Source of the DNA: Escherichia coli
GTDB lineage: Bacteria > Pseudomonadota > Gammaproteobacteria > Enterobacterales > Enterobacteriaceae
Strand: one strand, 5' to 3'
DNA: 64,000 nt
Assembly: GCF_003790525.1 (NCBI RefSeq)
Contig: NZ_CP033636.1
Part shown: positions 13,389 to 34,891 of the stretch, one piece after another
Position numbering within the stretch: the first letter of the stretch is position 1
How the letters are laid out: every line of letters starts with the position of its first letter
Made by a program: the position numbers and the translations under genes
Notes under the pieces: generated by a model
The model's database searches: none
Told to the model about the DNA's origin: nothing
What the model saw: the letters and a program-made list of their open reading frames with translations, nothing else

Positions 13389-13389
13389 A

Positions 13390-14469: not shown

Positions 14470-15425
14470 TGAAAAATCGTCTTTCTCCCTGGAATCTGGG
14501 AGCCACGCTATACATGCCTGCAACACGGGAAGATATTGCTGATGCCGTCCTGCACGGGAAAATCCCGGGTTTGCGCTCTCTGGTGATTTGCCTGGAGGAT
14601 GCTGTCAGTGAAGCAGACATCCCCGTCGCCCTCAAAAATCTGGAGCACCTGCTGCACGAGCTCAGTAACAGCATGCATAGCCTGGGTAAAAATGACTGGC
14701 CTCTGGTGTTCATTCGCCCCCGGCATGCCGAAATGGGCAGATGGTTAAAAGCGCATTATGATCTTTCCGCTGTCGACGGGTTTGTGTTGCCGAAATTTAC
14801 CCTCAGTTCGTTAGCTGAATGGTGGGATATCATGGGCGGGACTCACCTGTGCATGATGCCAACGCTGGAAACAGAAGACGTCTTTGACGTGGTTCAGATG
14901 CGGGAGCTGGCCACCCGTCTGGTGGAACATCCCTGCCACGACCGCATTATTGCGCTTCGAATCGGCGGCAACGATCTTATGAACGTTGTGTCGCTTCGCC
15001 GTCCCCGGGACCTGACGCTGTATGACAGCCCGATGGGCTACGTCATCAAAATGCTCGTTTCGGTCTTCGGCCCGCGTGATTTTGCCCTGACCGCGCCCGT
15101 ATGTGAGCATATTGACGATCATGCCGTAATGGCCAGAGAGCTGGCTCTTGATATGGCACATGGGCTTGTTGGGAAAACGGCCATTCACCCGGGTCAGATA
15201 GAGGTCATTCAAAACGCGCTGATGGTCACTCAGGGTGAGCATTCTGACGCTCTGCGGATCCTGAACTCTACCCAGGCCGTGTTTAAGTCGCAGGGAGCAA
15301 TGTGTGAACCCGCCACACATCGCCGCTGGGCGGCTGGCATTCTGGACAGAGCTCGTTTTTATGGGTTACAGAACGAGCAAAGCGCTGATGGAATCAGATT
15401 ACTTACCGTGACCCAGCATCATTAA
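14469..15425 (+). CDS. HpcH/HpaI aldolase / citrate-lyase beta-like TIM-barrel protein (ter-associated)
   Basis: 318 aa; motif VICLEDAVSEADIP; ATG overlaps the upstream stop (TGATG); AAGAAGG SD. Confidence 0.65.
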   Translation: MKNRLSPWNLGATLYMPATREDIADAVLHGKIPGLRSLVICLEDAVSEADIPVALKNLEHLLHELSNSMHSLGKNDWPLVFIRPRHAEMGRWLKAHYDLSAVDGFVLPKFTLSSLAEWWDIMGGTHLCMMPTLETEDVFDVVQMRELATRLVEHPCHDRIIALRIGGNDLMNVVSLRRPRDLTLYDSPMGYVIKMLVSVFGPRDFALTAPVCEHIDDHAVMARELALDMAHGLVGKTAIHPGQIEVIQNALMVTQGEHSDALRILNSTQAVFKSQGAMCEPATHRRWAAGILDRARFYGLQNEQSADGIRLLTVTQHH

Positions 15426-15435
15426 GGAAATCATA

Positions 15436-16644
15436 ATGGGGTTCAGATTCAGAAAGTCGATCAACATTATTCCTGGTGTTCGCCTCAACCTGAGTAACGG
15501 TGCACCGAGCCTGAGTGTCGGGCCGAGAGGTGCTTCCGTTTCTTTTGGAAGCCGGGGGACCTATGCCAATCTGGGCTTGCCCGGTACCGGGCTGAGTTAC
15601 CGTACCCGGCTTGATCGGGCCGCGCGTTCCGGAGGTGGGAACCGGACGGCTACCGACCCGGGGCTCAGACAGGCGCTTGAGGAGGAAGCCGCTGATCTCA
15701 TGTCAGCGGTGACCGCAATCCGTAATATTCACGAGCTGACGCCGGATCCTAAAACAGGCATCAGCTGGGCAGAGCTGGAAGCAGTATACCTGCATAACAG
15801 AACGTCGCCTTTTCAGGTTCCGGCACCGGTGCGTCCAGAAAAGCCAGACTATCTTGCATTGCCGGAAAAGCCTGCCGAGAGCGAAGGCATTAGTTTTCTG
15901 GGTAAATGGTTTGAATCGGAATCAGCTAAAGCTGAGCGCCACGCCGAAAATCTTCGCCGGTGGCAGCAGGAGCTGATTGATGTGGAGCGTGAGAATACCC
16001 TTCGACAGCACCGGTACCAGCAACAACGGACGGCCTGGGCCGAACAGTATGCAAACTGGAAGTTTGAGGCTGAAGAACATGAAAAACGGCTCGCCACGGC
16101 TCAGGCAGATGCCCGGCAGCAGTTCCGGACAGACGCCGCGTTTTTCGAATCATACCTGGCGGGTGTGCTGGCAGAAACTGAATGGCCGCGTGAAACGCTT
16201 GTTGCATTTGAAGTAAAGCCGGAGCTATCAGCAGTCCTGCTGGATGTTGATTTAGCTGAGATTGAAGATTTCCCTGATAAGATTTACGGCGTTAATGCCC
16301 GGGGCACGGAGCTGACGGAAAAAGCCATGACGCAAAAAGCCGTACGCGAAAACTATGCCCGCCACGTCCATGGCTGCTTGTTCCGCCTGGTCGGTATCGT
16401 TTTACATACGCTACCGTTCGACAACGTGATTGTGTCAGGCTTTACGCAACGGGTCAGTAAGCGGACCGGCTATCTGGAGGATGAGTATATCCTGTCCTGC
16501 AAATGCAGTCGCAGCCAGATGTCGTCAGTAAATTTTGCAGGCTTAGAACACATTGATCCGGTTGAAGCGTTAGGCGATCACCCGGTTATTCGAAAGATGA
16601 GCAGTACCTTCATTTTTCAGCCTATTGAACCACTAACCCTTTAA
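15436..16644 (+). CDS. DUF4236-like protein
   Basis: 402 aa; N-terminus MGFRFRKSINIIPGVRLNLSNGAPSLSVGPRGASVSFG resembles the DUF4236 signature; remainder charged and helical. Confidence 0.55.
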   Translation: MGFRFRKSINIIPGVRLNLSNGAPSLSVGPRGASVSFGSRGTYANLGLPGTGLSYRTRLDRAARSGGGNRTATDPGLRQALEEEAADLMSAVTAIRNIHELTPDPKTGISWAELEAVYLHNRTSPFQVPAPVRPEKPDYLALPEKPAESEGISFLGKWFESESAKAERHAENLRRWQQELIDVERENTLRQHRYQQQRTAWAEQYANWKFEAEEHEKRLATAQADARQQFRTDAAFFESYLAGVLAETEWPRETLVAFEVKPELSAVLLDVDLAEIEDFPDKIYGVNARGTELTEKAMTQKAVRENYARHVHGCLFRLVGIVLHTLPFDNVIVSGFTQRVSKRTGYLEDEYILSCKCSRSQMSSVNFAGLEHIDPVEALGDHPVIRKMSSTFIFQPIEPLTL

Positions 16645-16661
16645 GCAGGCTAAATCTTACG

Positions 16662-17129
16662 ATGCAATTAAATACCAGACAGGCCCGGATTTTTAAGCTT
16701 GCCAACTTACTGGGCACCGGCAAGCCCGTTTCCGCTGCCGACATTATAACCAGTCTGGAATGCTCAGAGCCGACATTAACCCGGGCACTCAAAGAGCTAC
16801 GCGAGTCATATTCTGCGGAGATCAAATACAGCAAGGCAGGTCATTCCTACCATCTCGTTAATCCGGGCCAGCTGGATAAAAAGACCCTTCGCCGGATGAA
16901 TGAAGCGCTCGCACAGAATGCTGAACTGAAAACCGGTGAGTCCACAGGGAAGGTCGTACTCGATAAGGATAAAAAAACAGCCGTGTCATTATCGCTACGC
17001 ATGCGGATTTTAAGAAAAATTGACCGTCTGGCTGCGCTGAGTGGCTCGACCCGAAGTGAAGCGGTAGAGAAGCTGGCTCTGCACTCCGTTGATGAACTGA
17101 TAAAAGAATACAGCGCTAAAAAGTCCTGA
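16662..17129 (+). CDS. terW: TerW-like DNA-binding protein
   Basis: 155 aa; size and position (just upstream of the terY/terX module) match terW; HTH-like segment SAADIITSLECSEPTLTRALKEL. Confidence 0.7.
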   Translation: MQLNTRQARIFKLANLLGTGKPVSAADIITSLECSEPTLTRALKELRESYSAEIKYSKAGHSYHLVNPGQLDKKTLRRMNEALAQNAELKTGESTGKVVLDKDKKTAVSLSLRMRILRKIDRLAALSGSTRSEAVEKLALHSVDELIKEYSAKKS

Positions 17130-17142
17130 CGCTAAATCTCAG

Positions 17143-17168
17143 ACCGGGGTGAAAACCCCGGTTTTGTC
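17143..17168 (+). terminator. Rho-independent terminator after terW
   Basis: ACCGGGGT-GAAA-ACCCCGGT hairpin followed by TTTGTC, 14 nt after the terW stop. Confidence 0.6.
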
Positions 17169-17591
17169 ATATTTCACCTCTGTATCTGCGTGACGGAGTT
17201 TTGATCTATTCTCCTCCCGCAATGTCAGCAGCGCCTTTCTGCCTACAAAACCTGGTGTCTTGACATCCTCTTGTGCTACACATCAATCTTTGGGCGATTT
17301 ACACTCCATTCATGCAGATCTGTGATGTATGATGATTTTCATACATAAGAAAGTTTATTTTTGCCGGAGTTTTTTTCAGAAATTTATATTCCAGTACGGT
17401 CTGAATTTTTTTCTCTGATAAGAGGCCATTCACATGTCGGTAATTCAATGGTGGTTAACTTATTTCTTTAATGCCGCTTCTGAGTATTTAATCTCCACCC
17501 GACAGATGTCGTGCCGTTTTATCAAATCTACAAACTCTGGCCTCTTCCTGAAACTACTCTCCTCTTCCGATCTCTTAAGAAGGAATTACAT

Positions 17592-18230
17592 TTGAGACGC
17601 TTACCCGTATATCTGCTACTCGACACGTCCGGCTCTATGCACGGAGAGCCTATCGAAGCGGTTAAGAATGGCGTTCAGACGCTGCTTACCACGCTGAAAC
17701 AGGATCCGTATGCACTCGAAACGGCTTACGTGTCAGTGATCACCTTTGATTCTTCAGCCCGACAGGCAGTCCCCCTGACAGACCTCCTGAGTTTCCAGAT
17801 GCCAGCACTAACAGCCAGCGGCACCACCTCTCTTGGCGAAGCGCTTTCCCTCACGGCCAGCTCCATTGCCAAAGAAGTACAGAAAACGACGGCTGACACT
17901 AAAGGTGACTGGCGTCCCCTTGTATTCCTGATGACGGATGGAAGTCCGAATGATGACTGGCGTAAAGGCCTGAATGACTTTAAAGCGGCCAGAACCGGCG
18001 TTGTTGTGGCATGTGCAGCCGGGCATGATGCCGATACCAGCGTCCTCAAAGAAATCACTGAAATCGTGGTTCAGCTCGATACAGCTGACAGTTCGACGAT
18101 TAAAGCTTTCTTTAAATGGGTCAGTGCGAGCATTTCGGTAGGCAGTCAGAAAGTGGAGTCCAGCAAAAAAGAAGTGATCGGTCTTGAAGACCTGCCACCG
18201 CCGCCGCCAGAAGTAAACGTGGTCTTATAA
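17592..18230 (+). CDS. terY: TerY-like vWA domain protein
   Basis: vWA MIDAS motif LLLDTSGSM...LMTDGSPND; proposed TTG start at 17592 preceded by AAGGA, in the same context (AGGAATTACAT) as the next terY paralogue; the track ORF starts at ATG 17511 without an SD. Confidence 0.65.
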   Translation: MRRLPVYLLLDTSGSMHGEPIEAVKNGVQTLLTTLKQDPYALETAYVSVITFDSSARQAVPLTDLLSFQMPALTASGTTSLGEALSLTASSIAKEVQKTTADTKGDWRPLVFLMTDGSPNDDWRKGLNDFKAARTGVVVACAAGHDADTSVLKEITEIVVQLDTADSSTIKAFFKWVSASISVGSQKVESSKKEVIGLEDLPPPPPEVNVVL

Positions 18231-18252
18231 TTTTATTAATTAAGGGGATGTC

Positions 18253-18894
18253 ATGTCTGTCAGTCTGAGCAAAGGCCAGGGCGTAAGCCTGAAAAAAAAT
18301 GAATACGATCTCTCGTCCGTTACTATCGGCCTGGGTTGGGATATTAATGAGGAAAAGAAAGGTTTCCTCGGCGGGATCTTTGGTAAAAAAGAAGAAGAAT
18401 ACGACCTTGATGTGATCGCTTTCCTGTGTAATTCAGCCGGAAAGGTGACCGATCTCGGCAATGTGGAAAATGGTAAACCAACGCTTGTGAATGGCGATAT
18501 CATCTTTTTCAACAGCCTTCGCCATAAGTCAGGAAATATCTGGCTGACGGGCGATAACCGAACCGGAGCCGGTGATGGTGACGATGAGCAAATTATTGTG
18601 CGCCTGAATTCCCTTGACGCTCAGTACGAGAAAATTGTGTTCATCGTTCAGATCTACAATGGTGAAAAGCTCCAGCAGCACTTTGGTAAAGTTCAGAATG
18701 CCTTCATCCGGGCAGTAGATGCCCGTAATATTGAAATGGCACGATTCGATCTTTCTGGCGGACCCGCCTTCGCCAGCCAGCGCTCCATGGTTTTTGCCGA
18801 GCTGATACGCGAGGCTACAGGCTGGAAACTCAGGGCAATTGGTGAGCCTTCAGAATCAGATTCGTTTGTCTCGCACCTGAGGAATTACATGTGA
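18253..18894 (+). CDS. terX: TerX-like TerD-domain protein
   Basis: 213 aa; [15 protein letters not shown]...GDNRTGAGDGDDE TerD-family pattern; AAGGGGA SD. Confidence 0.8.
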   Translation: MSVSLSKGQGVSLKKNEYDLSSVTIGLGWDINEEKKGFLGGIFGKKEEEYDLDVIAFLCNSAGKVTDLGNVENGKPTLVNGDIIFFNSLRHKSGNIWLTGDNRTGAGDGDDEQIIVRLNSLDAQYEKIVFIVQIYNGEKLQQHFGKVQNAFIRAVDARNIEMARFDLSGGPAFASQRSMVFAELIREATGWKLRAIGEPSESDSFVSHLRNYM

Positions 18895-19532
18895 TGCGCC
18901 GCCTGCCTGTTTACCTTGTTATCGACACATCCGGCTCGATGCGCGGTGAGTCCATCCATTCCGTTAACGTTGGAATTCAGGCGATGCTTAGCGCTCTTCG
19001 CCAGGATCCCTACGCCCTCGAAAGCGTTCATATCTCCATTATCACCTATGACAATGAGGCGCGTGAGTTCATTCCTCTCACGCCGCTGGAAGACTTCCAG
19101 TTTTCTGACATCGTTGTGCCAAGCGCAGGCGGGACGTTCACCGGTGCTGCCCTTGAATGTCTGATGCAGTGTGTTGAACGGGATGTACGTCGCTCAGATG
19201 GTGATACAAAAGGAGACTGGCGTCCTCTGGTATTCCTGATGACTGATGGAACCCCTTCTGATGCCCTGGCGTACGGTGAAGCGGTAAAAGCGATTCGCGG
19301 CCGGGGATTCGGATCCATCATTGCCTGCGCCGTTGGTCCTAAAGCAGGCCATGAGCACTTAAAACAGCTCACCGATAAGGTTGTGTCTCTGGAGACGCTA
19401 GATTCAACCGCGTTTGCAGGTTTCTTTAAATGGGTATCGGCCAGCGTGTCTTCCGGCAGCACAAGCGCGGGGATCAATAACGGAACTGATACCCTTCCCC
19501 CTCCTCCACCAGAAATCCAGCTGGTGCTCTGA
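18894..19532 (+). CDS. terY: TerY-like vWA domain protein (second copy)
   Basis: MRRLPVYLVIDTSGSMRGE...LMTDGTPSD; ATG overlaps the terX stop (TGATG). Confidence 0.7.
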   Translation: MRRLPVYLVIDTSGSMRGESIHSVNVGIQAMLSALRQDPYALESVHISIITYDNEAREFIPLTPLEDFQFSDIVVPSAGGTFTGAALECLMQCVERDVRRSDGDTKGDWRPLVFLMTDGTPSDALAYGEAVKAIRGRGFGSIIACAVGPKAGHEHLKQLTDKVVSLETLDSTAFAGFFKWVSASVSSGSTSAGINNGTDTLPPPPPEIQLVL

Positions 19533-19535
19533 CAG

Positions 19536-19572
19536 ACAGAAAGGTGCTGCTTTCCGGGCAGCACCTTTCTGT
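19536..19572 (+). other. Perfect 15-bp-stem hairpin between two terY genes (intercistronic RNA structure)
   Basis: ACAGAAAGGTGCTGC-TTTCCGG-GCAGCACCTTTCTGT; no U-run follows, so not a canonical intrinsic terminator. Confidence 0.6.
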
Positions 19573-19617
19573 ACAGCAACGTTTTCTGCTGGCCGTACCA
19601 GCCGTACGAGGAAAATT

Positions 19618-20658
19618 ATGAGACGCCTTCCCGTGTTTTTTGTCCTGGACTGTTCAGAGTCCATGATTGGTGAAAACCTGAAAAAAATGACTGATGGTCT
19701 GCAAATGATCATCGGAGATTTAAGAAAGGATCCACACGCACTTGAAACAGCCTGGGTTTCGGTAATCGCATTTGCCGGTGTAGCCCGTACGATTGTACCT
19801 CTTCACGAAATTGCCTCGTTCTACCCTCCCCGCCTTCCCGTTGGCGGCGGTACGAGCCTTGGGGCCGCATTGCGTGAGCTGACCGTACAAATTGATACCC
19901 AGGTCAGAAAAACCACTCATGAGGCTAAAGGCGACTGGAAACCCGTCGTGTATCTCCTTACCGACGGACGTCCGACTGACGACACAACCGCAGAAGTGAA
20001 GCGCTGGAAGGATCACTACGCGAGTAAAGTGAATCTCATTGCCGTTGGCCTGGGGCCGTCAGCGGACCTGAATACCCTGCGGCAACTGACAGAGAATGTC
20101 ATGCTGTTCACCGAGTCTCAGGAAGGGGACTTTACCCGCTTCATCAAATGGATCACAGCCTCGGTTACGGCGCACAGCCGCAGCGTCGGAGACGACAAAC
20201 AACCTGAGCTCAGCCAGACTGAATACATAGTCCGGCTGGCCAAGGACGAGCCAGTAAAAGCGTACGACGAAAACTGCGTTACGCTTACCGGCCGTTGCAG
20301 CAAGACCCGTCGTCCGTATCTGATGAAGTATGAACGGCCACCAGCAAGGATTTCCGGGCTCGATTTCAGCCTGAACCTGAACAGCTTTAATATTGCCGGA
20401 TGCTATCCCATCGATGAAGACTATTTTGCATGGTCAGATGCCACCGCTACCGGTTTGCAGGTAAACACCAGCGAACTGCATGGCGTACCGGGTTGCCCTC
20501 ACTGCGGTAATGCCAGTGCGTTTGCCCTGTGCTCATGCGGAAAATTGCTGTGCATTGACGGCCCGGATGACGTGATCTGCCCGTGGTGTGAAACAGGTCT
20601 GTCATTCAGCAATGATGGCGGAAACACTAACTTCGACGTAAACAGAGGGAGAGGTTGA
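19618..20658 (+). CDS. terY: TerY-like vWA protein with C-terminal cysteine-rich zinc-ribbon-like domain
   Basis: 346 aa from ATG 19618; MRRLPVFFVLDCSESM...LLTDGRPTDD; C-terminal CPHCGN...CSCGKLLC...CPWCE; the track ORF from 19414 is an in-frame upstream extension across the hairpin. Confidence 0.7.
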   Translation: MRRLPVFFVLDCSESMIGENLKKMTDGLQMIIGDLRKDPHALETAWVSVIAFAGVARTIVPLHEIASFYPPRLPVGGGTSLGAALRELTVQIDTQVRKTTHEAKGDWKPVVYLLTDGRPTDDTTAEVKRWKDHYASKVNLIAVGLGPSADLNTLRQLTENVMLFTESQEGDFTRFIKWITASVTAHSRSVGDDKQPELSQTEYIVRLAKDEPVKAYDENCVTLTGRCSKTRRPYLMKYERPPARISGLDFSLNLNSFNIAGCYPIDEDYFAWSDATATGLQVNTSELHGVPGCPHCGNASAFALCSCGKLLCIDGPDDVICPWCETGLSFSNDGGNTNFDVNRGRG

Positions 20659-22295
20659 TGTCGCAAAATGTTTTACTTGAAGAGAAGATTATCCGCTTAG
20701 TGCTGTCTGAGCTGGGCCACCCTGTAGAAGGTGAGCGGCTTTTTCTTCTATCGCACGACCCTTCCCTTACTGAAGAGATTATGCGGCTTAAAGAGCGGAT
20801 TGAGAGCCTTGCACAGGGTTTATCTGCGCGGGTTAGCGAAGGTTATAACGACGCAGAGATCGCCCCCTCGTCAGCATCCAGCCTTTCCGATCAGCAACAA
20901 ACGGTCGTAAGTGATGCTGATAACCCGGGCATTGACGCTACCGATACACCATTACTGCAACCCCTGCCAGAAAATGAACCTCATCCTCCGTTCTGGAAGC
21001 TGATGCCTTATTACGAATTTGATAAACCAGCACAGAGGGAAGACGAAAACCTGTCTTCCCTGGTATTAAAACCCGGGCAGATACCGACAGGCCAGCAGCG
21101 GGCCGGATTAGCTGTGCCACCTGCCGTTCCCCCGAGAGCTAAAATAGTTATTCCCAACGCCCGCGCAGGCGAACGTTTCTCTTCGCCGGTTGCTATAGTT
21201 CTGGATGAGGGCCAGCAGGCTACTGTCAGGGACGTTGTCTTTCCCAGGAACATTGGCCTGACCTTTGACAAAGAGCATAAGTTGCTGACAGGTACACCCA
21301 CCGAAAGCGGCGATATAGAGCTTTCAGTACTCTGGTCATGCGCTTCGCACGACGAATGCGAAACAAAACAGCTTTTTATAGTCAATCCCGATCCGAGAAG
21401 CCTGTGGAAGGTGGTAGAGCCACCAGCAGACGCTTCCTACCCTAAGTCCCATCTGGACGCTGCTGGCCTGGTCAGGGGTGACATACGTATTGCTGCCGCC
21501 AGTCGCCGGGGACGATCTCATGAGCATGCCGGGAGCTTCAGAGATGACGACTTCTATATCAACCACTGCCAGGAAACAGGATGGTCTGTCATGCTGGTCG
21601 CAGACGGGGCCGGTAGTGCGGTAAATTCCCGGGAAGGCTCCCGGATTGCAGTCCAAACGGCTGGCGATTACCTTTTCAATCAGCTCAGTGGTTTGAAAGG
21701 CGTCCATCTAAAGCAGCACATCACGGCGTGGGAAGGGAGCGATCAGCAGGCAACCATAAACGCCATGCTTCATCATTTTAAACAGGCAGCTACGCTCGCG
21801 GTCAACAGTATCCAGAACGAAGCCATTTGTGCAGAACAACCTGTGAAATCCTATTCAACAACCCTACTGGCAACTGTAGCGCTACGAACTGATAACGAGC
21901 TGTTTGCGGCTGCATTCTGGCTTGGTGATGGTGCGATAGGTGCATACAGCCCTTCCGGTAAAGTCAGGATACTGGGAAATCCCGATAGCGGAGAATACGC
22001 AGGACAAACCCGCTTTCTTGACCAGAGCATTATCGCAGACCCCTCGTTTAGCGGCCGCATCAGCGTGGGTAAATGGAATGATGTATCTCACTTGATCCTC
22101 ATGACAGATGGCGTATCAGACCCTCTGTTTGAGACAGATAACGGGCTTCGCAGTGACGAAAAATGGACCCGTCTCCTTGATGAGCTCATCCCTGTCCTTA
22201 CAGACGCCAGTATTGCGCCTGAGAGGTTAGGCGACTGGCTTAACTTTTTCTCCACAGGGAACCACGATGACCGCACTATTGCGGTGTTGTGGTAA
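20655..22295 (+). CDS. PP2C-family Ser/Thr protein phosphatase (ter-associated)
   Basis: 546 aa; PP2C-like motifs (RGRSHEHAGSFRDDDF, LVADGAGS, LMTDGVSD); GGGAGAGG SD; ATGA overlap with the upstream stop. Confidence 0.75.
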   Translation: MMSQNVLLEEKIIRLVLSELGHPVEGERLFLLSHDPSLTEEIMRLKERIESLAQGLSARVSEGYNDAEIAPSSASSLSDQQQTVVSDADNPGIDATDTPLLQPLPENEPHPPFWKLMPYYEFDKPAQREDENLSSLVLKPGQIPTGQQRAGLAVPPAVPPRAKIVIPNARAGERFSSPVAIVLDEGQQATVRDVVFPRNIGLTFDKEHKLLTGTPTESGDIELSVLWSCASHDECETKQLFIVNPDPRSLWKVVEPPADASYPKSHLDAAGLVRGDIRIAAASRRGRSHEHAGSFRDDDFYINHCQETGWSVMLVADGAGSAVNSREGSRIAVQTAGDYLFNQLSGLKGVHLKQHITAWEGSDQQATINAMLHHFKQAATLAVNSIQNEAICAEQPVKSYSTTLLATVALRTDNELFAAAFWLGDGAIGAYSPSGKVRILGNPDSGEYAGQTRFLDQSIIADPSFSGRISVGKWNDVSHLILMTDGVSDPLFETDNGLRSDEKWTRLLDELIPVLTDASIAPERLGDWLNFFSTGNHDDRTIAVLW

Positions 22296-22320
22296 GGGAT
22301 ACGCTTCTTCGGTGATCAAT

Positions 22321-23820
22321 ATGGCAAATATTGTTACGTGCAAAACAAAGGACGGCGAAACAGTCCAGTATGTTGACGAGGTAATTGGTTCGGGCTCGAT
22401 GAAGGATGTTTACTTCTCGCCTGATAAATCATACGTCGTCGCTTTTTATCATAAACCGCAGAACGAGCAGGCCCGGGATCGGATTGATATGATCACCGGA
22501 CGCTACAGGCAAAACATTTTTGGCCAGTCCGGAGGTGAATACTGGAAGGACCTGTTTTGCTGGCCGACCCACGTTGTTGAGCATGGGGATAAAATCGGCA
22601 TCGTGGTTCCAACCTACAAAAGCTACTTTTTCTTTAAATACGGCTCTAAAAACGATGATTTTCTTGGCATAAAAGGCCGTGAAAAGGAAGGCAAATGGTT
22701 TGCCAGCGCCAGCAACCAGAATAAATTTCTCGACCCACGTGAACGAGGCAATACGCTTACCTATCTCAAGGTCTGTCTGCTGCTAACAAGAGCCGTCAGA
22801 AGGATGCATGCGGCAGGTCTCTGTCACAGCGATCTAAGCTATAAAAACGTGCTTATCGATCCAGAAATGGGACATGCCTGCATCATTGACGTAGACGGCC
22901 TGGTTGTCCCTGGAAAGTATCCTCCCGACGTCGTGGGCACCCCGGATTTTATCGCTCCGGAAGTGGTGAAAACCAGCCATCTTTCCAAAGAGGATCCGAA
23001 CCGCGTATTGCCAAGCATTTCTACTGACCGTCATGCGCTGTCGGTGCTTATCTACATGTATCTGTTCTTCCGTCATCCGCTACGTGGCGGAAAAATACAT
23101 GACATGTCGGATGAAGTACGTGATGAGACCTTATCTATGGGTGAGAAGGCACTCTTCATTGAACATCCGACAGACAAAAGCAATGCAGTCAAAGTCAGTC
23201 AGCTATCCTCCTTTTCACTGCCCTGGGCTGACCCGGAGAAAATTCCTTACACCATCATGGGCCCTTATTTGACGCCTTTGTTTGAACGCGCCTTTATTGA
23301 TGGCTTACACGATGCCAATAAACGCCCGACCGCCGATGAGTGGGAAAGTGCCCTGGTTAAAACAGTCGATCTGATACAGCCCTGCCAGAACAAGGCGTGT
23401 GAACAGAAATGGTACGTTTTCTCAGGTAAGACAAAGCCGGTTTGTCCCTACTGCGGTACGCCATACAAGGGTAAATTACCGGTTCTAAATTTATATTCAT
23501 CCCGAAAGGAAGGCAGTTATCGTCCTGACGACCACCGGTTGATGGTGTGGAGCGGGCAGTCAATCTATGCGTGGCATGTGAATCGCCTCATTGCGCCAAA
23601 TGAGCGCACAACCGATGCACAAAGGAAACGAGTTGGGTATTTTGTTTTCCATAACGATCAGTGGTGGTTAGTAAATGAAGGCATAAATGGGCTTATGTCA
23701 TTACCGGATAAACGACAGATTGCCATTGGGGAAAAAATTGAACTGACGAATAACGCTCAGTTTGTTCTGTCAAAGGAGGAAGGCGGCAGGCTGGTCGTCG
23801 TTCAGTTAGTTGAAAACTAA
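22321..23820 (+). CDS. Ser/Thr protein kinase with C-terminal zinc-ribbon (ter-associated)
   Basis: Kinase catalytic-loop-like HSDLSYKNVLID and IIDVDG; C-terminal CQNKACEQ...CPYCG; start taken at ATG 22321, track ORF starts at 22267. Confidence 0.7.
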   Translation: MANIVTCKTKDGETVQYVDEVIGSGSMKDVYFSPDKSYVVAFYHKPQNEQARDRIDMITGRYRQNIFGQSGGEYWKDLFCWPTHVVEHGDKIGIVVPTYKSYFFFKYGSKNDDFLGIKGREKEGKWFASASNQNKFLDPRERGNTLTYLKVCLLLTRAVRRMHAAGLCHSDLSYKNVLIDPEMGHACIIDVDGLVVPGKYPPDVVGTPDFIAPEVVKTSHLSKEDPNRVLPSISTDRHALSVLIYMYLFFRHPLRGGKIHDMSDEVRDETLSMGEKALFIEHPTDKSNAVKVSQLSSFSLPWADPEKIPYTIMGPYLTPLFERAFIDGLHDANKRPTADEWESALVKTVDLIQPCQNKACEQKWYVFSGKTKPVCPYCGTPYKGKLPVLNLYSSRKEGSYRPDDHRLMVWSGQSIYAWHVNRLIAPNERTTDAQRKRVGYFVFHNDQWWLVNEGINGLMSLPDKRQIAIGEKIELTNNAQFVLSKEEGGRLVVVQLVEN

Positions 23821-23986
23821 CGGACGCCCATTACGACTAAAACGTTCTGGCAGCATACTGAACCTGTTTAATGAATCACTATATTAAGCAGTGTCAAATT
23901 TAAGCTGCCAGAAAAAACTGACTGTCTGTGCCGGATATGCGGTACACCGCCTGCGGCAAGGGTTTAATGCGCAAAGCCCAAGTTAT

Positions 23987-25069
23987 TTATAAAAGTGAAT
24001 AATTTTGTGACTCTACCCTGCCGCTCTTCTTTCCAGTGTCATGGTTTTTAACATCTGAAATACTGACATTGTTAAGCCGGTGATTGTAAAAGGCGATGCG
24101 GACAATCTCATGAAGATATTCAAGTTCGTTTTGTGTCAAGGACTGGCCTTCCTGGGTTTTTGAAATCATTTCCTGCCAGCAGATCAGTCTTTCGTAACTG
24201 ACATGTTCGCTGTTTTCCAGGCAGTGCAACCTGAAATAGCGAAGGAACAAAGGAAATTCATCGGTCTGAGCGATGTCATAAGCCCGAACCGTTAACCGAC
24301 ACAGACATACAATCGTATCCTGCTGTAACCTGACTAGCGCGTTATGACTGCCCGGAAGGATATCAGGCAATTTCATCTTACAGTCAGCAAGGCGCTGAAG
24401 AAGAGGCCCTTCCTCTGAAGGCTCCCGTCCCCGATACTCCTGAAGAGGTTCAGATTCAAGTTCATGCATTAATGGATGATATAGCCATTCCCGGGAACTG
24501 GTCTCATCAATGATCAGGCTTTCAATGCACTCACTGTATGTTGTTTTACGTCGCCCGAGCTGCACCTGACTGATTTCATATTCAATATCAGGAAGATCGA
24601 TACGCAATGCGGCAACTCTTTCGGAAGGATGAAGATGGTCAAAGGTTAACTTCTCTGAAATGCTGCGATCCCTGTCCAGAAAGACGGCCACACATAAATC
24701 ATTAACCTTTACGAACAGATCAGCTGTGCCTCCGAACATACTGCCGCTTCCACTAACCTCATTCAGTGAAACCGGCCCACCATCGTCGCCAGCGAGAAGA
24801 TTTGGGAAACCAAGAACCTGGTGCTCGTTGATGACTTCAATAATCTTTCCCCGGATGGCTTCCATCAGACCATCACAGTCACCGGCTACAGCTGTACTGT
24901 GTGAGAAATGCCAAAGCTTGACCTCCCCCTGCTTTGCTAACAGATCAGTTTTGCAAGCGGGGCAGATGCAGTTACAGTCAATACCCCGGCTGACCTCTGT
25001 AATATCTAAAAAGAGTCCTGATTCTCGCTGGAGTCCAAATGGAATACCAAATGTATAACTCTTACGCAT
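23987..25069 (-). CDS. hypothetical protein with CoiA-like N-terminal zinc-finger motif (possible nuclease-related)
   Basis: Motif CNCICPACKTDLLAKQGEVKLWHFSH resembles the N-terminal motif of CoiA-like proteins; start ambiguous (TTG 25099 or ATG 25069). Confidence 0.4.
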   Translation of the reverse strand: MRKSYTFGIPFGLQRESGLFLDITEVSRGIDCNCICPACKTDLLAKQGEVKLWHFSHSTAVAGDCDGLMEAIRGKIIEVINEHQVLGFPNLLAGDDGGPVSLNEVSGSGSMFGGTADLFVKVNDLCVAVFLDRDRSISEKLTFDHLHPSERVAALRIDLPDIEYEISQVQLGRRKTTYSECIESLIIDETSSREWLYHPLMHELESEPLQEYRGREPSEEGPLLQRLADCKMKLPDILPGSHNALVRLQQDTIVCLCRLTVRAYDIAQTDEFPLFLRYFRLHCLENSEHVSYERLICWQEMISKTQEGQSLTQNELEYLHEIVRIAFYNHRLNNVSISDVKNHDTGKKSGRVESQNYSLL

Positions 25070-25228
25070 GGCTGCACCCCGTTTTTGATAATGATTCAAA
25101 CTATATCCGAAATAACGGAGGAGGATTTCTGTAAAACGTATTAAAAGAAATGATTTTTCCGTCTTCCAGATTAATGTTTGACAAAAATCAAATGAGAGCC
25201 TTACAAATATTGAGAGAGAAGTTTAGGT

Positions 25229-25239
25229 AAAGTAACTTT
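25229..25239. repeat. AAAGTWACTTT palindrome copy 3 (intergenic)
   Basis: Exact match ggtAAAGTAACTTTTatc. Confidence 0.9.
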
Positions 25240-25429
25240 TATCACTTCTAATAAAATGAAGGAGAATATCGGATGTATTTAGCAGTGGGCTTGGCTTATG
25301 ATTAAAGTTTTTCTCCGAACTTAATAAACAACTTTAAAAGACAGGCTATTACAATGCCTTTAGCCCCGAAAGGGGCATAAACTATTTTCAAATCTAGGCA
25401 CAGTCTTTTTGTTGTGCCAATATTAATAA

Positions 25430-25648
25430 TTACTCGCGAACAAAGGTCCACACACTCGCAGGAACTTTGTCATATAACTTTTTCATTGTCAGTTCGGCTT
25501 TACGATGATCATAAGCACCAGAAATTTCAAGAGAGGCGACACCCGAGTTTTTTTCACATAACCTTTCAAATACTTTTTCGAGCGTTTCGAACGAACTACA
25601 CTTACGGAATTTCATTAAATAAGACTGCTTTGTGTCAGACATAATCAA
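25430..25648 (-). CDS. hypothetical small protein (72 aa), divergent from the recombinase gene
   Basis: ORF from track; no motif recognised. Confidence 0.35.
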   Translation of the reverse strand: MIMSDTKQSYLMKFRKCSSFETLEKVFERLCEKNSGVASLEISGAYDHRKAELTMKKLYDKVPASVWTFVRE

Positions 25649-25803
25649 CCTTCTTTAGACAGGCCTCAACTGGCCAGGGATAATCTTAATATCATTTTTC
25701 ACTTAAGCCTAACGATTTCACAACCTTTTTCGTTGTTTCCACCCTGTTCATAACCAGGTACATGAGTGCTAAAATGACCTGTAATTAAAACCAGTGTATC
25801 CCG

Positions 25804-26988
25804 GTGAGCAGGATGAAGAATCAATCAGTGATCAGACAGTTTTCGGAAAGCGAATTGCATCAGCAGCTGGAAACGTTCGGCAACCATGATAAACAGCTTT
25901 CACGCTTGATCCGTTACTTTTCCCATCTGAGATACAACACTGCTAAAACCTATCTGCACTGGCTACGAGTATGGAACGAATGGTATCTGGCGAATGCCCG
26001 GTTGCATACAGACTGGCCAGTAAGTTCGCTCCCCGTGTCTGAGGACGCTCTGCTTGCGTTTATGGGGCATCTTGAAGGCAAATTGTCACGAAGCAGCATA
26101 AACAGCTGTCTTCAGGCCTTAAATAGTATCCATAAAAAAGGGCTTAACCTGCCCGGGATTATTACGTCTGAAGCATGGTACATGCTGGAAGCCTTAAAAC
26201 AATCGGAAGCCCGGAAGCGAAAGACGACTAAACAGGCAACTCCCTTTCTTATTGGCGATCTCAAGGCTCTGATAAAGTTACGCAGTACTACAAACTCAGT
26301 TCGTAAACTTCGTGACCTGTGCCTGATCTGGACAGGCTTTGAAACACTGCTCCGTTCATCCGAAATTCGACGTATACGTCTGAAAGATCTGTCTCTGGAT
26401 AGTATGACCGGTGAATTTAACCTGACGGTATACCGTACAAAAACGAACATTAGTACACTTCTTACCTACCGGCTGACACGTCAGTTAACTAACTGCCTCT
26501 TGAGATTGATGAACCTCGTGAAAATGGATCAGCACAGTCATCCGGATGAATTCCTTTTCCAGGCCGTAAATTTCCATGATACAGGCTATATGCCACCCGG
26601 CTGGAAGCTTCGGAGTAAGGGGAATGAGCTATCTGAACTTCTTAAAAGGCATAACCTACCCTATCGTGCTAAGCAAAGTCTTCTGAACGATGAAGATGAA
26701 GAAGACACTGTGGACGATGCCGGTATGCTCAGCAAAAATTCCCTTTTACGAGCATTTAAAGAGATGTGGAATGAGCTTTATCCAAATGAGACTAAAACTC
26801 GTTACTGGACAGGGCACAGCGTTCGTGTAGGCGGAGCGATACAGCTAAATATTGAAGGTTACTCGCTACCACAGATTATGGAAATGGGGAACTGGTCGAA
26901 TGAAGAAATGGTTATGCGCTACATTCGTAATATTGAAGCTGGTAAAAAAGCAATGATCAAGCTTATGCGAAATGCCTTTGATGAATAG
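25804..26988 (+). CDS. Tyrosine site-specific recombinase (phage-integrase family)
   Basis: 394 aa; C-terminal catalytic-region pattern HSVRVGGA...GNWSNEEMVMRYIRN (His-x-x-Arg, terminal Tyr) and upstream Arg block LRSSEIRRIRLKDL; alternative ATG at 25813. Confidence 0.75.
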   Translation: MSRMKNQSVIRQFSESELHQQLETFGNHDKQLSRLIRYFSHLRYNTAKTYLHWLRVWNEWYLANARLHTDWPVSSLPVSEDALLAFMGHLEGKLSRSSINSCLQALNSIHKKGLNLPGIITSEAWYMLEALKQSEARKRKTTKQATPFLIGDLKALIKLRSTTNSVRKLRDLCLIWTGFETLLRSSEIRRIRLKDLSLDSMTGEFNLTVYRTKTNISTLLTYRLTRQLTNCLLRLMNLVKMDQHSHPDEFLFQAVNFHDTGYMPPGWKLRSKGNELSELLKRHNLPYRAKQSLLNDEDEEDTVDDAGMLSKNSLLRAFKEMWNELYPNETKTRYWTGHSVRVGGAIQLNIEGYSLPQIMEMGNWSNEEMVMRYIRNIEAGKKAMIKLMRNAFDE

Positions 26989-27018
26989 CGCCCTCACGGG
27001 CGCATAACTTTATTTTTT
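26988..27018 (+). terminator. Probable terminator after the recombinase gene
   Basis: GCGCCC-TCAC-GGGCGC hairpin at the stop codon, T-run 27011-27018. Confidence 0.45.
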
Positions 27019-27354
27019 CTTGAACGGGTTAAGTCTGGTGAGATTAGAGAGTGCCCCTCCCGGAGGCAAAATTCCCGTTCTTTTATATTTGTACACGCCA
27101 TTTAATTTCATTGTCTGGATTCCAAGATTAATAAGCGTGACAAGTTTAAGGGTATACAGAAGTGTAAATTGTGGAGCAACCTGAATAAAAACCAATAACA
27201 AGCCTGCACACATTACACGTAGCCATGCCGCGTACTCCATGCTCAGCGGACGCTTGAAATAGAATCTTTCGAGCAAATCAACTGTCTTATTACTGATCCA
27301 CGCCGCCGCCACGGAGAGTAACAACACGATGCACACCATAATGCCCAGTTCCAT
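27010..27354 (-). CDS. hypothetical membrane protein
   Basis: Hydrophobic N-terminus (GIMVCIVLLLSVAAAW) and second helix; GAGAAGGGA SD. Confidence 0.4.
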   Translation of the reverse strand: MELGIMVCIVLLLSVAAAWISNKTVDLLERFYFKRPLSMEYAAWLRVMCAGLLLVFIQVAPQFTLLYTLKLVTLINLGIQTMKLNGVYKYKRTGILPPGGALSNLTRLNPFKKK

Positions 27355-28195
27355 TTTCACTCCCTTCTCTTTTAGTCTCTTTAAGTTGAGGCTTAGCCAC
27401 AGTAGTTTTGTTTTTTGCTTTTTTCTTAGGTTTGGTATGATGAAACAGAAAACAATCCACCATTACCCAACCATTTTTATATCGAGCCACCAGCATCTTC
27501 TGGCTGGGGTAATGAGCATGAAACAGCATTTTCACGTCCATGGTGCCCATCAACGACTGTTTGCGCTTTAGCTCATCCTCAGCCATCTGAAATTCTTGTA
27601 AGAATTCTGAAGACAGACGCTGACGCAGGATTCTTATGGCACTGGAGTTTTCATCATTCTTTGCCAGATGCCCGAAGCGTACTAGTGCCTTGTGGGTTAT
27701 CTGGATGGGTCCCAGATGAGAGCTGAGCTGTTCGTACTGCCAGAAGTAGGTCAAATCCACCTTAACCCAGCTGATGCTGTCCAGCAGAGCCTCGTTCATG
27801 ATGGTTCCGGACATTGGTACCATTGTCAGCCTGGCCAGACGCATATGTATGTAGTCCGTAAGCAACCTCAGCGACTCAGGAACGTTTTTATTGAGCAGGA
27901 GATGCTGAAGCACCGGGGTTGCGGTCTGCCAACACAGATTGCGCCCGTCAGGCAGGAAAGCAAACTTTTGATCGTCAGGCGCAGAGTTCGAAGCGTTTTC
28001 CTTACGAAGCAAAAAATAATGGCCGCACAGCAGCTCTGCTCTTACCTGGTCCTCGTCAGGGTCATGTCGGGCTTTACTTAGATCAACGGTAAGCACAACG
28101 CGGTTAATCGCATCAGCGTGATATTTTTTTACCCAGACGCAGACACGATAGAGACGCTCATCGATTTTCTGGCTGGCTGTGGAAATCCATTGCAT
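27290..28195 (-). CDS. hypothetical protein (301 aa)
   Basis: ORF from track; lysine-rich C-terminal tail overlaps the next gene by about 65 nt. Confidence 0.45.
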   Translation of the reverse strand: MQWISTASQKIDERLYRVCVWVKKYHADAINRVVLTVDLSKARHDPDEDQVRAELLCGHYFLLRKENASNSAPDDQKFAFLPDGRNLCWQTATPVLQHLLLNKNVPESLRLLTDYIHMRLARLTMVPMSGTIMNEALLDSISWVKVDLTYFWQYEQLSSHLGPIQITHKALVRFGHLAKNDENSSAIRILRQRLSSEFLQEFQMAEDELKRKQSLMGTMDVKMLFHAHYPSQKMLVARYKNGWVMVDCFLFHHTKPKKKAKNKTTVAKPQLKETKREGSENGTGHYGVHRVVTLRGGGVDQ

Positions 28196-28204: not shown

Positions 28205-29185
28205 TTAATTTTCGGGGCTGACAATGAAAATGCCCAGCTCAGCCCCCGGCACGAGTTCTGTATATTTCAGGCTCAGCTTCCGTTGGTTGGACGGGCCCTG
28301 GCTGTTTTCAGGAGCCCAGTCAGAGAGCGTTTTTAATTGAGGTATGTTGCCTGCTGCGAAAATGGGCAAGGATGCTTTTACTACTGAATAATCAGTCTCA
28401 GCATATTTATTCCCGTTTCGTTCCTGCCCTTCAGGCCTAAATGCAAAAATGTGAGCAATCGGAACAGGGAAAGAGTTAGTTCGACAAAGGCGATAAGATT
28501 CGCCCTGCTTCAGTGGGTGAAATTCAAGACGGTGTAAAGCCTTATCGATATTAGACACGACATTCAAATTGGTAGTTGCTACATTTTTTACTTCTGAGGC
28601 TCTCCTGCGCTCCAACAAACTCACAAGTTGCTCTGCTGTTTTAACTTCCTGGTTTCGGTTTAGCCGCCATGAAAAAGTAACTTTTTTAAGCTGGGACTTG
28701 ATGAAAAGGACATTTCTTGTTGAGTGCATAGCGACAAGGCCCGGGAGCTTCTTGTGCACTTTATCAAAACGGACATTCTTTTTATTATCGATACGCCTCA
28801 TTGCCGCAGCAAAATCATTTTTTGCTTCATTTATAGATGTGATCAAGCTTTCGAGAAGATCTGCTCTTTCTGGGACAATGATAAGACCCGGGTATTTAGT
28901 GGTCACTTTGGTGGAATCATGACTTAATGACTCTATGTCATCCACACAGATGTCAGTAAGTGCCTGAATAATTTCCTCAACCGAAGCATCGTCTTTAACA
29001 CTAACCCTGATGGGTTTAACCTGCTTCAGTCGCTCTTCTGTTCGAGATACGGTGGAGACAGTCATCAGGTTTGCCATCAGCGGGGGGGTGTTCGAAAGAA
29101 AACACTTAAGCGAGTCGATACGTTCCAGAATCTGGTCACGAAAATAGGGCAAATCGTCATAACTCATACGTTTCTCCAGGCTCAT
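28205..29185 (-). CDS. hypothetical protein (326 aa)
   Basis: ORF from track; codirectional tightly packed gene. Confidence 0.45.
   Translation of the reverse strand: MSLEKRMSYDDLPYFRDQILERIDSLKCFLSNTPPLMANLMTVSTVSRTEERLKQVKPIRVSVKDDASVEEIIQALTDICVDDIESLSHDSTKVTTKYPGLIIVPERADLLESLITSINEAKNDFAAAMRRIDNKKNVRFDKVHKKLPGLVAMHSTRNVLFIKSQLKKVTFSWRLNRNQEVKTAEQLVSLLERRRASEVKNVATTNLNVVSNIDKALHRLEFHPLKQGESYRLCRTNSFPVPIAHIFAFRPEGQERNGNKYAETDYSVVKASLPIFAAGNIPQLKTLSDWAPENSQGPSNQRKLSLKYTELVPGAELGIFIVSPEN
28675..28685. repeat. AAAGTWACTTT palindrome copy 4 (inside CDS 28205..29185, encodes K-V-T-F)
   Basis: Exact match tgaAAAAGTAACTTTTTTaag. Confidence 0.9.
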
Positions 29186-34823: not shown

Positions 34824-34843
34824 TTCAATACCCTCTTAATAGA

Positions 34844-34879: not shown

Positions 34880-34891
34880 AAATAATTTTAA

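Follow-up and report, generated by a model that had tools for sequence, protein, structure and literature searches.

Ter modules are known to provide resistance to tellurite, phages and colicins. In the IncHI2 plasmid R478, the ter region comprises terZABCDEF together with terW and terXY, and tellurite, phage and colicin resistance have been ascribed to it (Whelan et al., 1995, 1997, as listed in PMC8193136). IncHI2 plasmids have been assigned ter-type 2, and chromosomal ter elements of E. coli are found at tRNA genes together with other integrases (PMC8193136). A triad formed by TerY, a PP2C protein and a kinase has also been defined (PMC10542128), and a preprint makes the case that ter was ancestral to IncHI and disappeared from R27-like plasmids (10.1101/334409). 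As for the backbone genes, ORF R0182 of the IncHI1 plasmid R27 is hha, the counterpart of the hha gene considered below (PMC4853401).

The stretch of DNA analysed here (64,000 nucleotides, hereafter the window) belongs to an IncHI2 plasmid. A sequence search matched 1505 records, with 100% identity to IncHI2 plasmids over 6 kb; identity of the window to these plasmids ranged from 97.8 to 100%, and hundreds of sequenced plasmids reached 100%. According to the annotation of an identical plasmid, its ter module (about 20 kb) contains terZABCDE, a VWA gene, ATP-grasp, PRTase, StiP and HpcH genes, terW, and the TerY, PP2C and kinase genes. The three adjacent genes that close the cluster (VWA, PP2C and Ser/Thr kinase) form a TerY-P triad, in which the VWA gene was taken from the annotation and the PP2C gene matched PF13672 (PP2C_2, E 1.3e-46). 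The features around the right end of the module, and the backbone segment to its left, are the following:

1266–2008, minus strand: left-hand backbone gene segment, homologue of a 393-bp IncHI gene (89.5% identity to the IncHI1 plasmid pSRC27-H, L008 18815–19556; 72% to the IncHI4-like plasmid L010)
3871–23821, no strand: ter module, delimited by the annotation of an identical plasmid and by similarity to the pNDM-CIT-like plasmid L012; GC 0.512
22321–23820, plus strand: Ser/Thr kinase gene, last in the ter module, after the PP2C gene (Pkinase PF00069, E 6e-10)
23802–23824, no strand: small hairpin spanning the kinase stop codon (inverted repeat, arms TCAGTTAGTT and AACTAACGGA)
23821–23822, no strand: junction point at the right end of the ter module, where the window, L012 and the E. 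coli chromosome L021 all diverge straight after GAAAACTAAC
23822–24064, no strand: IncHI2-specific spacer of 243 bp, which takes in the final 26 codons of the CoiA-like ORF and shows no similarity to IncHI1 or IncHI4-like DNA
23845–23913, no strand: inverted repeat pointed out by an earlier note on this DNA, arms TTCTGGCAGC (23845–23854) and GCTGCCAGAA (23904–23913)
23960–23979, plus strand: terminator-like hairpin with a T-rich tail, from a consensus scan only, downstream of the kinase gene and beside the CoiA-like stop codon
23987–25069, minus strand: backbone gene for a 360-aa protein (CoiA_N-type zinc ribbon, divergent restriction-endonuclease-like domain, C-terminal helical domain)
25070–25429, no strand: AT-rich intergenic region (computed GC 33%) between hha and the CoiA-like gene, tolerant of insertions
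25430–25642, minus strand: backbone gene hha, Hha/YmoA nucleoid-associated modulator (PF05321, E 9.3e-19; 77% nucleotide identity to IncHI1)
25643–25812, no strand: divergent control region, a conserved block with a promoter-like and a LexA-box-like site (three-lineage alignment, promoter scan)
25813–26988, plus strand: backbone gene for a Cre-like tyrosine recombinase (PF00589, E 1.8e-13; E 1.9e-23 to P1 Cre chains)
28205–29167, minus strand: gene for a Tus-like replication terminus protein (PF05472, E 4.6e-19), closing the conserved block

The right end of the ter module was found to be sharp, one base past the kinase stop codon. Indeed, L012, a pNDM-CIT-like IncHI plasmid, matched the window at 80.8% over 3871–5035 and at 94.5% over 5500–23821, with no similarity past either end. 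The ter copy in the chromosome of E. coli HUSEC2011 (O104:H4; L021) is 99% identical, and its similarity ends at 23821, where it is followed by an IS21-family end. In the IncF plasmid L009, an IS110-like insertion starts one base later, after the G at 23822 and within 1–2 bases of the seam, so that both this element and the IS21-family end abut the 3' side of the 23802–23824 hairpin. Klebsiella IncHI3 ter copies (72%) stop at about 23805. The IncF plasmid (OW968359.1), whose match stops at 23822, was rejected as independent evidence of an island end because its similarity comes from an IncHI2 fragment into which the IS110-like element has inserted, the spacer resuming after the IS; the insertion point is still notable. 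From the other side, similarity to the ter-less IncHI1 and to the IncHI4-like plasmid runs on the left up to about 2008 and resumes only at 24065, remaining collinear to at least 38.8 kb. In these plasmids, no ter separates the 393-bp gene from the nearby CoiA-like gene; the two genes are near or next to each other in ter-less relatives, and the distance is 527 bp in L002 and L010.

Taken together, these alignments point to 23821/23822 as the right-hand seam between the ter module and a conserved IncHI backbone block of an IncHI2 plasmid. This explanation is very probable as a whole, a judgement that covers jointly the seam, the travelling ter module, the independent backbone and the steps proposed below. 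The position of the seam is read directly from the aligned replicons rather than inferred. The same is true of the ter module travelling as a unit, since copies in other replicons share this right end, and of the independence of the backbone block from ter. The junction between a ter island and an AT-richer backbone that the earlier note had suspected is thus supported and given a precise location. Its suggestion of aligning ter-negative relatives yielded the insertion boundary, but no direct repeats: comparison of 3600–3900 with 23790–24070 revealed no direct or inverted repeats common to both module ends beyond scattered chance 8–9-mers. ARAGORN detected no tRNA or tmRNA gene in the window. 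The ter block therefore resembles a genomic island in its deviant GC and in its absence from relatives whose flanks lie near each other, but it shows neither attL/attR direct repeats, nor a co-travelling recombinase, nor insertion at a tRNA or tmRNA gene. The seam itself may have originated by illegitimate or IS-assisted recombination rather than through the neighbouring recombinase.

Gene orientation and base composition both change in this region, as had been noticed by eye. The plus-strand ter genes stop with the kinase at 23820, and the next two genes (23987–25069 and 25430–25642) lie on the minus strand. GC content is 0.512 for 3869–23820 versus 0.41 for 23821–64000, and GC3 is 0.52–0.61 in ter genes and 0.29–0.50 in backbone genes. 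However, the compositional break does not fall near 23.9 kb, where it had been placed: when the whole window was segmented by maximum likelihood, the dominant change point fell at about 25000 (log-likelihood ratio 285), where the CoiA-like gene has its 5' end, and the GC of the kinase gene (0.478) is similar to that of the CoiA-like gene (0.462). Since the change point lies about 1.1 kb to the right of the seam, composition alone would misplace the latter.

To the right of the spacer, the conserved backbone block comprises the genes for the CoiA_N protein, Hha, the divergent Cre-like recombinase, two small proteins and Tus. The order CoiA_N-domain protein, Hha, Cre-like recombinase and, further on, Tus is kept in IncHI1, IncHI2, IncHI3 and IncHI4-like plasmids, the position of the Tus-like gene being the same in the other three as in the window. 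This order is constant in plasmids where ter adjoins the block, where it lies elsewhere (next to the Tra1 region in the pNDM-CIT-like/IncHI4-like lineage; 7.6 kb away and in the same orientation in IncHI3) and where it is absent (IncHI1). Because the order is kept irrespective of ter, the CoiA_N protein, Hha and the recombinase are assigned to the backbone and not to an island integration module, as had been considered. The earlier note had regarded an unbroken composition together with identical gene order in ter-negative relatives as evidence against a boundary; the break is present, and the CoiA_N–hha–recombinase–Tus order is the same in ter-less IncHI1. No E. coli-type Ter sites for Tus were detected above chance, and searches of PADLOC, PHROGs and NCBIfam with the CoiA-like protein and the two small backbone proteins gave no match.

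The initial description of the flanking genes was accurate for the tyrosine recombinase (PF00589) and the small divergent gene, which encodes Hha, but the CoiA likeness extends only to the zinc ribbon and to a weakly restriction-endonuclease-like fold. The CoiA_N zinc ribbon (PF25164, E 6.3e-8, 32.5 bits versus a cut-off of 26.3) was matched over its 27-residue core only, and was present in all 48 relatives. The CoiA nuclease domain PF06054 was matched neither by the query nor by any of the 48 at E 0.01 or better; instead, DUF7828 and DUF7830 were found in 16 and 19 of them, respectively. The domain following the zinc ribbon has its best structural neighbours among restriction-endonuclease-fold nucleases, a weak likeness, and the catalytic motif typical of a PD-(D/E)XK fold appears to be lost, with Phe130 standing in place of the catalytic Glu in beta-strand 3. 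In natural ter-positive plasmids the gene is split by IS66 or IS100. The product, encoded downstream of hha on the same strand, may be a dispensable, probably non-catalytic accessory protein with predicted DNA binding. The intergenic region that separates both genes has received ISSen4 in L019, IS1-RepFIA-IS1 in IncHI1 and an extra 642-bp gene in L002. In the small protein encoded by hha, the HHA domain (residues 12–67, profile positions 1–56/57 of PF05321) spans the whole length. The surroundings of hha (33–40% GC) are the kind of AT-rich DNA silenced by H-NS and Hha.

Comparison of the recombinase with P1 Cre revealed 27% identity over the full length (BLASTP, E 8e-27), and phmmer aligned both proteins in two stretches (residues 40–256 and 332–390, E 1.9e-23), N-terminal domain included. 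Residues R181, E184, K210, H335, R338, W361 and Y370 correspond to Cre R173, E176, K201, H289, R292, W315 and Y324, and this R-E-K-H-R-W-Y set is invariant in the four IncHI lineages and Cre. Like P1 Cre, the IncHI enzyme is encoded on a low-copy replicon of plasmid type, which would benefit from dimer resolution, and it most likely serves plasmid maintenance in this manner. In R27, deleting ORFs of the hha region singly or in combination caused no loss of stability except in the case of incC; among the 18 deletions obtained, only deletion 16 lowered stability, and fine mapping led to incC (PMC4853401). Since no deletion is named there as covering the recombinase, the proposed role is drawn from homology. 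Both the Cre-like recombinase and the CoiA_N protein are conserved in IncHI1, IncHI2, IncHI3 and the IncHI4-like plasmid.

A search for 13-(6–10)-13 repeats near the recombinase gene in three lineages, together with a scan of the whole window, gave no conserved lox-like site. The best local candidate (25391–25424), which matches at 10/13 arm positions, is conserved in neither IncHI1 nor the IncHI4-like plasmid, the best AT-rich candidate of the whole-window scan (37575–37608) was rejected as not conserved in IncHI1, and the others looked like terminators or were not conserved. Cross-lineage comparison of inverted repeats showed that the equivalent slot holds conserved 34-bp palindromes (CTTAAnGCTAATG-N8-CATTAGCnTTAAG), which flank a gene in IncHI1 and IncHI3 and of which one stands alone in the IncHI4-like plasmid. 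They were discarded as a target of the recombinase, since the ORF family that they flank (150 aa, found in about 3300 plasmids) is accompanied by the same palindromes in an IncI-gamma/K plasmid with no annotated recombinase in the 7.5 kb examined. Neither the palindromes nor the 150-aa ORF are found in the window. Upstream of the recombinase gene, the control region holds a promoter-like site (25747–25775, TTCATA-17-TGcTAAAAT) and, just after the -10 element, a LexA-box-like CTG-N10-CAG (25777–25796) whose position is shared by three lineages with only about 70% identity to one another. A speculative and rather unlikely extension would make the block beside the seam a maintenance unit of the plasmid 'terminus', in which Cre-family dimer resolution near a Tus-type fork trap would be induced by DNA damage via this putative LexA operator; site-specific exchange could then have produced the variable slot, which holds ter in IncHI2, a palindrome-flanked gene in IncHI1 and IncHI3, and a lone palindrome in the IncHI4-like plasmid. 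As a side lead that is not established, a damage-inducible dimer resolvase would offer a plasmid-stability target and possibly a new Cre/lox-type tool.

The spacer between the seam and the backbone occurs only in IncHI2 plasmids and fragments derived from them. The stem pair described in it was found in place, with perfect arms of 10 rather than 9 bp and a 49-nt loop; allowing 92% complementarity, the arms extend to 13 nt with a 43-nt loop. The window has 37 perfect inverted repeats with arms of 9 bp or more and loops of 3–60 nt, this one included, versus 14 ± 3.8 in shuffled sequences; on its own, the stem pair is not more than chance. Hairpins in the spacer would at most terminate the two convergent transcripts or stabilise their RNA. 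The plus-strand fold of 23815–23990 is unusually stable (z = -3.9, 0/200 shuffles as stable), unlike that of the minus strand (z = -1.7), a point against the main explanation in so far as termination may not fully account for it.

That fold, together with G-U pairs favouring the plus strand, could indicate that the spacer encodes a functional RNA, for instance a small RNA or a 3' UTR with which the ter transcript is regulated. This is quite improbable: an Rfam search of 23000–27500 gave nothing relevant, the inner helix needs a sublineage-specific base and is removed by a natural deletion (28 bp of the loop, absent from p50935_IncHI2), one copy has an arm mismatch that is not compensated, with no covariation, and, within the region, conservation among IncHI2 plasmids is lowest in the spacer (95.9% between the two sublineages versus about 98%). 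The repeat fares no better as the site of a recombination module that would have inserted the ter island, or would still move it, by means of the tyrosine recombinase and perhaps the CoiA-like nuclease, since the repeat is confined to IncHI2, is not lox-like given its 49-nt loop and is partly deleted in that natural plasmid. A recombinase catalytically intact by its residues does lie 2 kb from the seam, breakpoints recur at 23821/2, and the content of the slot between the 393-bp and CoiA-like genes differs among IncHI lineages. Nevertheless, the position of the enzyme is unchanged in IncHI1, which has no ter, and in the lineage that carries ter next to Tra1. No such recombinase adjoins the ter copies of Klebsiella plasmids and E. 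coli chromosomes, and flanking direct repeats and a tRNA gene are missing, so that this origin is extremely unlikely.

The CoiA_N protein could also be a partner of ter, that is, a DNA-processing effector under a TerY/PP2C/kinase switch, the true module end then lying near 25.1 kb at the GC drop. In IncHI2 the gene is the convergent neighbour of the kinase gene, in IncHI3 it lies no more than 7.6 kb from ter, and its kinase-like GC and the change point would fit. However, orthologues (73% identity) lie beside hha in ter-less IncHI1 and in the IncHI4-like plasmid with ter elsewhere, similarity to ter-less backbones covers the gene from 24065, and no such gene follows ter in L012, L006 or L021. 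With the gene also disrupted by IS elements in ter-positive plasmids and the change to Phe130 in its product, this partnership is very unlikely. A different objection is that there is no island, ter being an ancestral IncHI core block lost from R27-like plasmids and the seam just intergenic. In IncHI3, ter lies close to this backbone block with its orientation unchanged, and ter trees are reported to mirror backbone trees, favouring ancestral presence (10.1101/334409); if so, 'island' overstates how recently ter was acquired. This view is doubtful, though a possibility to be reckoned with, considering the 94.5% identity of ter between IncHI2 and the pNDM-CIT-like lineage despite backbones that are only about 70% identical and a different backbone position, the 99% identical copies with the same right end in E. 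coli chromosomes, and the GC difference between module and backbone. It concerns timing and leaves the module boundary unaffected.

The seam between a travelling ter module and an independent backbone can be set against the described systems. Like the tRNA-inserted E. coli ter elements (PMC8193136), the window has a GC-deviant block that is absent from relatives and a tyrosine recombinase near one end; in contrast to these integrase-bordered islands, it has no tRNA gene or direct repeats, and the recombinase is not part of the block. This advises caution, as a nearby tyrosine recombinase is not automatically an island integrase. The enzyme shares with phage P1 Cre full-length homology and all seven catalytic residues, but it is about 50 residues longer and has an insertion before the H-x-x-R motif, and no 13-8-13 site was found near its gene or conserved between lineages, unlike in Cre/loxP. 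With the competence protein CoiA, the 360-aa protein has in common an N-terminal C-x-C-x2-C...H-x2-H zinc ribbon above the Pfam cut-off, followed by a restriction-endonuclease-like domain, but CoiA has the nuclease domain PF06054, and the protein of the window is encoded in a conjugative plasmid backbone of Enterobacteriaceae. No difference was seen from the Hha/H-NS silencing module of R27, where the orthologous small gene has the same backbone position. Finally, the ter region of R478 belongs to the same replicon family and has the same gene block, with no essential difference, and the finding is thus ordinary and largely known already. What is added to the knowledge of R478 is the exact position of the module's right end (23821/2), the observation that this end recurs in other replicons and the placing of the adjacent genes in the backbone. 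The exact module end and the list of backbone genes should aid the annotation and comparison of the very common IncHI2 resistance plasmids.

By alignment, the right end of the ter module is placed at 23821/23822, since backbone relatives and copies of the ter block in other settings agree on this position. The earlier note had proposed a junction between a ter island and the backbone near 23.9 kb; the junction is a real module boundary, and that reading had placed it almost to the base. The gene order on either side is listed below.

Gene order across the junction, taken from the annotation of pD90-1, a plasmid identical to the window
ter block, start: terZABCDE and a VWA gene
ter block, middle: ATP-grasp / phosphoribosyltransferase / StiP / HpcH group, DUF4236 gene, terW
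ter block, later part: two VWA (TerY) genes, TerD-family gene, TerY-C
ter block, end: PP2C phosphatase, kinase (22321-23820, plus strand)
Right of the kinase: hypothetical protein (CoiA-like gene, 23987-25069, minus), Hha (25430-25642, minus), tyrosine recombinase (25813-26988, plus), two hypothetical proteins, Tus, long minus-strand run of backbone genes

On the backbone side, nucleotide similarity to the ter-less IncHI1 plasmid pSRC27-H covers window positions 1266-2008 and then runs collinearly from 24065 to at least 38.8 kb. An IncHI1B-typed, pNDM-CIT-like Citrobacter plasmid agrees in these limits (1355-1940 and from 24065); there, just 527 bp separate the 393-bp gene from the CoiA-like gene. 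On the ter side, the block of a pNDM-CIT-like plasmid, which adjoins the Tra1 transfer region, is 94.5% identical to the window over 5500-23821 and 80.8% over 3871-5035, with no match beyond. A 99% identical copy in the chromosome of E. coli O104:H4 HUSEC2011 stops at 23821 and is followed by an IS21-family end, and the match to the Klebsiella IncHI3 ter copies (72%) finishes inside the last kinase codons. Set side by side, the window, the pNDM-CIT-like plasmid and the HUSEC2011 chromosome diverge directly after ...GAAAACTAAC, one base past the kinase stop codon. The 243-bp spacer to the right of this point was seen nowhere but in IncHI2 plasmids and IncHI2-derived fragments. The IncF plasmid OW968359.1 was rejected as a same-place break: an IS110-like insertion lies 1-2 bases from 23821/23822, and the IncHI2 spacer resumes beyond it.

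The earlier note had also interpreted the flanking genes as a recombination module. Its naming of these genes was roughly correct, but the mechanism proposed for them fails, as the order CoiA-like gene, hha, recombinase, two small genes and Tus is common to four lineages in which ter is adjacent, elsewhere or absent.

Arrangement of the block in four IncHI lineages
IncHI2: the window itself; block order as annotated
IncHI1: block order kept; no ter; known IS1-RepFIA-IS1 insertion between the CoiA-like gene and hha
pNDM-CIT-like lineage: block order kept; ter elsewhere
IncHI3 Klebsiella plasmids: block order kept; ter 7.6 kb off, similarly oriented and separated from the block by a RepB replicon

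These genes are accordingly assigned, from sequence comparison, to the backbone. No direct repeats flank the ter module and the window holds no tRNA gene; the signature of site-specific integration is absent. The identity of ter (94.5%) across backbones that are only ~70% identical, together with the 99% identical chromosomal copies, shows that the ter block moves between replicons as a unit. Ter has been argued to be ancestral to IncHI (preprint 10.1101/334409), which, with the IncHI3 arrangement, makes the age of its adjacency to the backbone block debatable. In IncHI3 Klebsiella plasmids, hha and the Cre-like gene are separated by a group II intron (ltrA; L011 9661-11148), which takes the place of a promoter region conserved in the other lineages.

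Several further observations concern the ends and the variable slot. Two unrelated insertion sequences, the IS110-like element of the IncF plasmid (L009 4919-7548) and the IS21-family end in HUSEC2011 (L021 7023 onwards), abut the same 1-2 nt after the kinase stop, beside a small hairpin that spans this stop codon (23802-23824), and the pNDM-CIT-like context diverges at exactly this point; the hairpin site may be a hot spot of insertion or recombination. The CoiA-like ORF has recurrent breakpoints in its 3' end: several non-IncHI plasmids with IncHI2 ter fragments stop at 24032 (matches H157, H159 and L009), and 24052 is where IS1-associated truncations begin (H41, H164). The 393-bp gene and its surroundings (1266-2008) are 89.5% identical to IncHI1, versus 64-77% for the remaining shared backbone, which suggests more recent exchange or stronger constraint. 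The kinase gene bears varying RefSeq names ("lipopolysaccharide kinase InaA family", "helix-hairpin-helix domain-containing protein", "protein kinase") and weakly matches the PADLOC defence-system kinase components mad6, PD-T4-6 and MkoA (E about 1e-5).

In the equivalent of the ter slot, other IncHI lineages carry a 150-aa ORF flanked by 34-bp palindromes (13-8-13, CTTAAnGCTAATG-TAYGYGTM-CATTAGCnTTAAG); both are absent from the window.

Positions of the 34-bp palindromes
pSRC27-H (L008): about 20166-20203, 20705-20738
Klebsiella IncHI3 plasmids: L011 16575-16608, 17116-17149; L006 12632, 13173
IncHI4-like plasmid (L002): 11744-11775, a single palindrome without the ORF
IncI-gamma/K plasmid (L022): 3449, 4005, with the same ORF

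The ORF is 52% identical between IncHI1 and IncHI3, and its family occurs in about 3300 plasmids. GC-rich palindromes of another kind (GGGAT..CC-CAT..GG-GG..ATCCC; 34842-34881 and 35851-35885) lie between paralogous backbone genes of ~300 aa; IncHI1 and the IncHI4-like plasmid share their sequence, and a role as intergenic terminators or protein-binding sites is probable.

The change of gene orientation noticed earlier holds, the switch following the kinase stop at 23820. A break in composition had been located near 23.9 kb: the difference is real (GC 0.512 in 3869-23820 versus 0.41 in 23821-64000; GC3 0.52-0.61 in ter genes, 0.29-0.50 in backbone genes), but the strongest change point that likelihood segmentation finds in the whole window lies at ~25000. 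In GC the kinase (0.478) is close to the CoiA-like gene (0.462), and the true trough is the hha region (0.33-0.40). The inverted repeat claimed for the convergent intergenic region is present, with arms perfect over 10 bp (23845-23854 / 23904-23913); it is unremarkable on its own, since the window holds 37 comparable repeats (14 +/- 3.8 in shuffles). The spacer RNA fold is unusually stable on the plus strand (z -3.9) and not on the minus strand (z -1.7), and no Rfam family matches the spacer region. No other piece of the region is as weakly conserved among IncHI2 plasmids as the spacer (95.9% versus about 98%): p50935_IncHI2 has a natural 28-bp deletion (window 23855-23882) that removes the loop interior and keeps both arms, in one copy an arm carries a mismatch without compensation, and the inner helix relies on a base particular to the window's IncHI2 sublineage.

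An exhaustive search with a cut-off of E 0.001 gives the CoiA-like protein 2369 relatives, mostly of 250-350 aa and aligned over residues 1 to about 210; its AF2 model is confident over residues 1-205 (pLDDT 92, pTM 0.90). In Pfam, the CoiA_N zinc ribbon alone matches, in the query and 48 of 48 aligned relatives, and the CoiA nuclease model matches none of them. The name given earlier is apt for the N-terminal domain and overall architecture, short of CoiA family membership. A sister subfamily has the classical E...PD...E-x3-T-H(K) pattern, of which only the Asp (D117) remains in the IncHI clade, with Phe130 at the acidic beta-3 position. Natural ter-positive IncHI2 plasmids have this gene broken by IS66, IS100 or IS1, and in R27, stability was unaffected by single-ORF deletions in its region (PMC4853401). 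The protein, whose gene follows hha on the shared minus strand, is probably dispensable, non-catalytic and a putative DNA-binding protein.

Many IncHI2 plasmids from Escherichia, Salmonella and Enterobacter match the 6 kb around the junction at 100% identity; in PLSDB, this query matched 1505 records, 1082 of them with at least 80% query coverage. The junction is ordinary, in a plasmid family that is among the most often sequenced, and the ter block has long been known as an IncHI2 accessory region (PMC8193136).

The recombinase is classed by homology as a relative of P1 Cre, which it matches over both domains (phmmer, E 1.9e-23; BLASTP, 27% identity, E 8e-27), and the IncHI1, HI2, HI3 and HI4-like proteins and Cre all share the catalytic R, E, K, H, R, W and Y. 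No lox-like site was found near the gene, and no conserved one between lineages. Six bp past the hha stop codon, an AT-rich 13-8-13 inverted repeat (25391-25424; AATCTAGGCACAG-TCTTTTTG-TTGTGCCAATATT, 10/13 arm positions) overlaps a minus-strand promoter-like site; neither IncHI1 nor the IncHI4-like plasmid conserves it. In published R27 deletion work, stability depended on incC only, the text consulted not specifying a deletion that covers the recombinase (PMC4853401). By analogy with P1, the recombinase would most likely act in plasmid dimer resolution. The 65 bp before its start codon are far better conserved than the surrounding intergenic DNA and include a promoter-like TTCATA-17-TGcTAAAAT; directly past the extended -10 element, a CTG-N10-CAG palindrome holds the same position in three lineages.

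LexA-box-like palindromes before the recombinase gene
IncHI2: window 25777-25796, ACCTGTAATTAAAACCAGTG, 12/20 to consensus
IncHI1 and IncHI4-like: pSRC27-H (L008) about 26230-26249 and Citrobacter plasmid L010 (reverse strand, upstream of 5309), A/GGCTGTAAATAAAAACAGTG, 14/20

The palindrome resembles a LexA operator and is offered as a lead only, a side lead to the idea that LexA may control a conserved Cre homologue.
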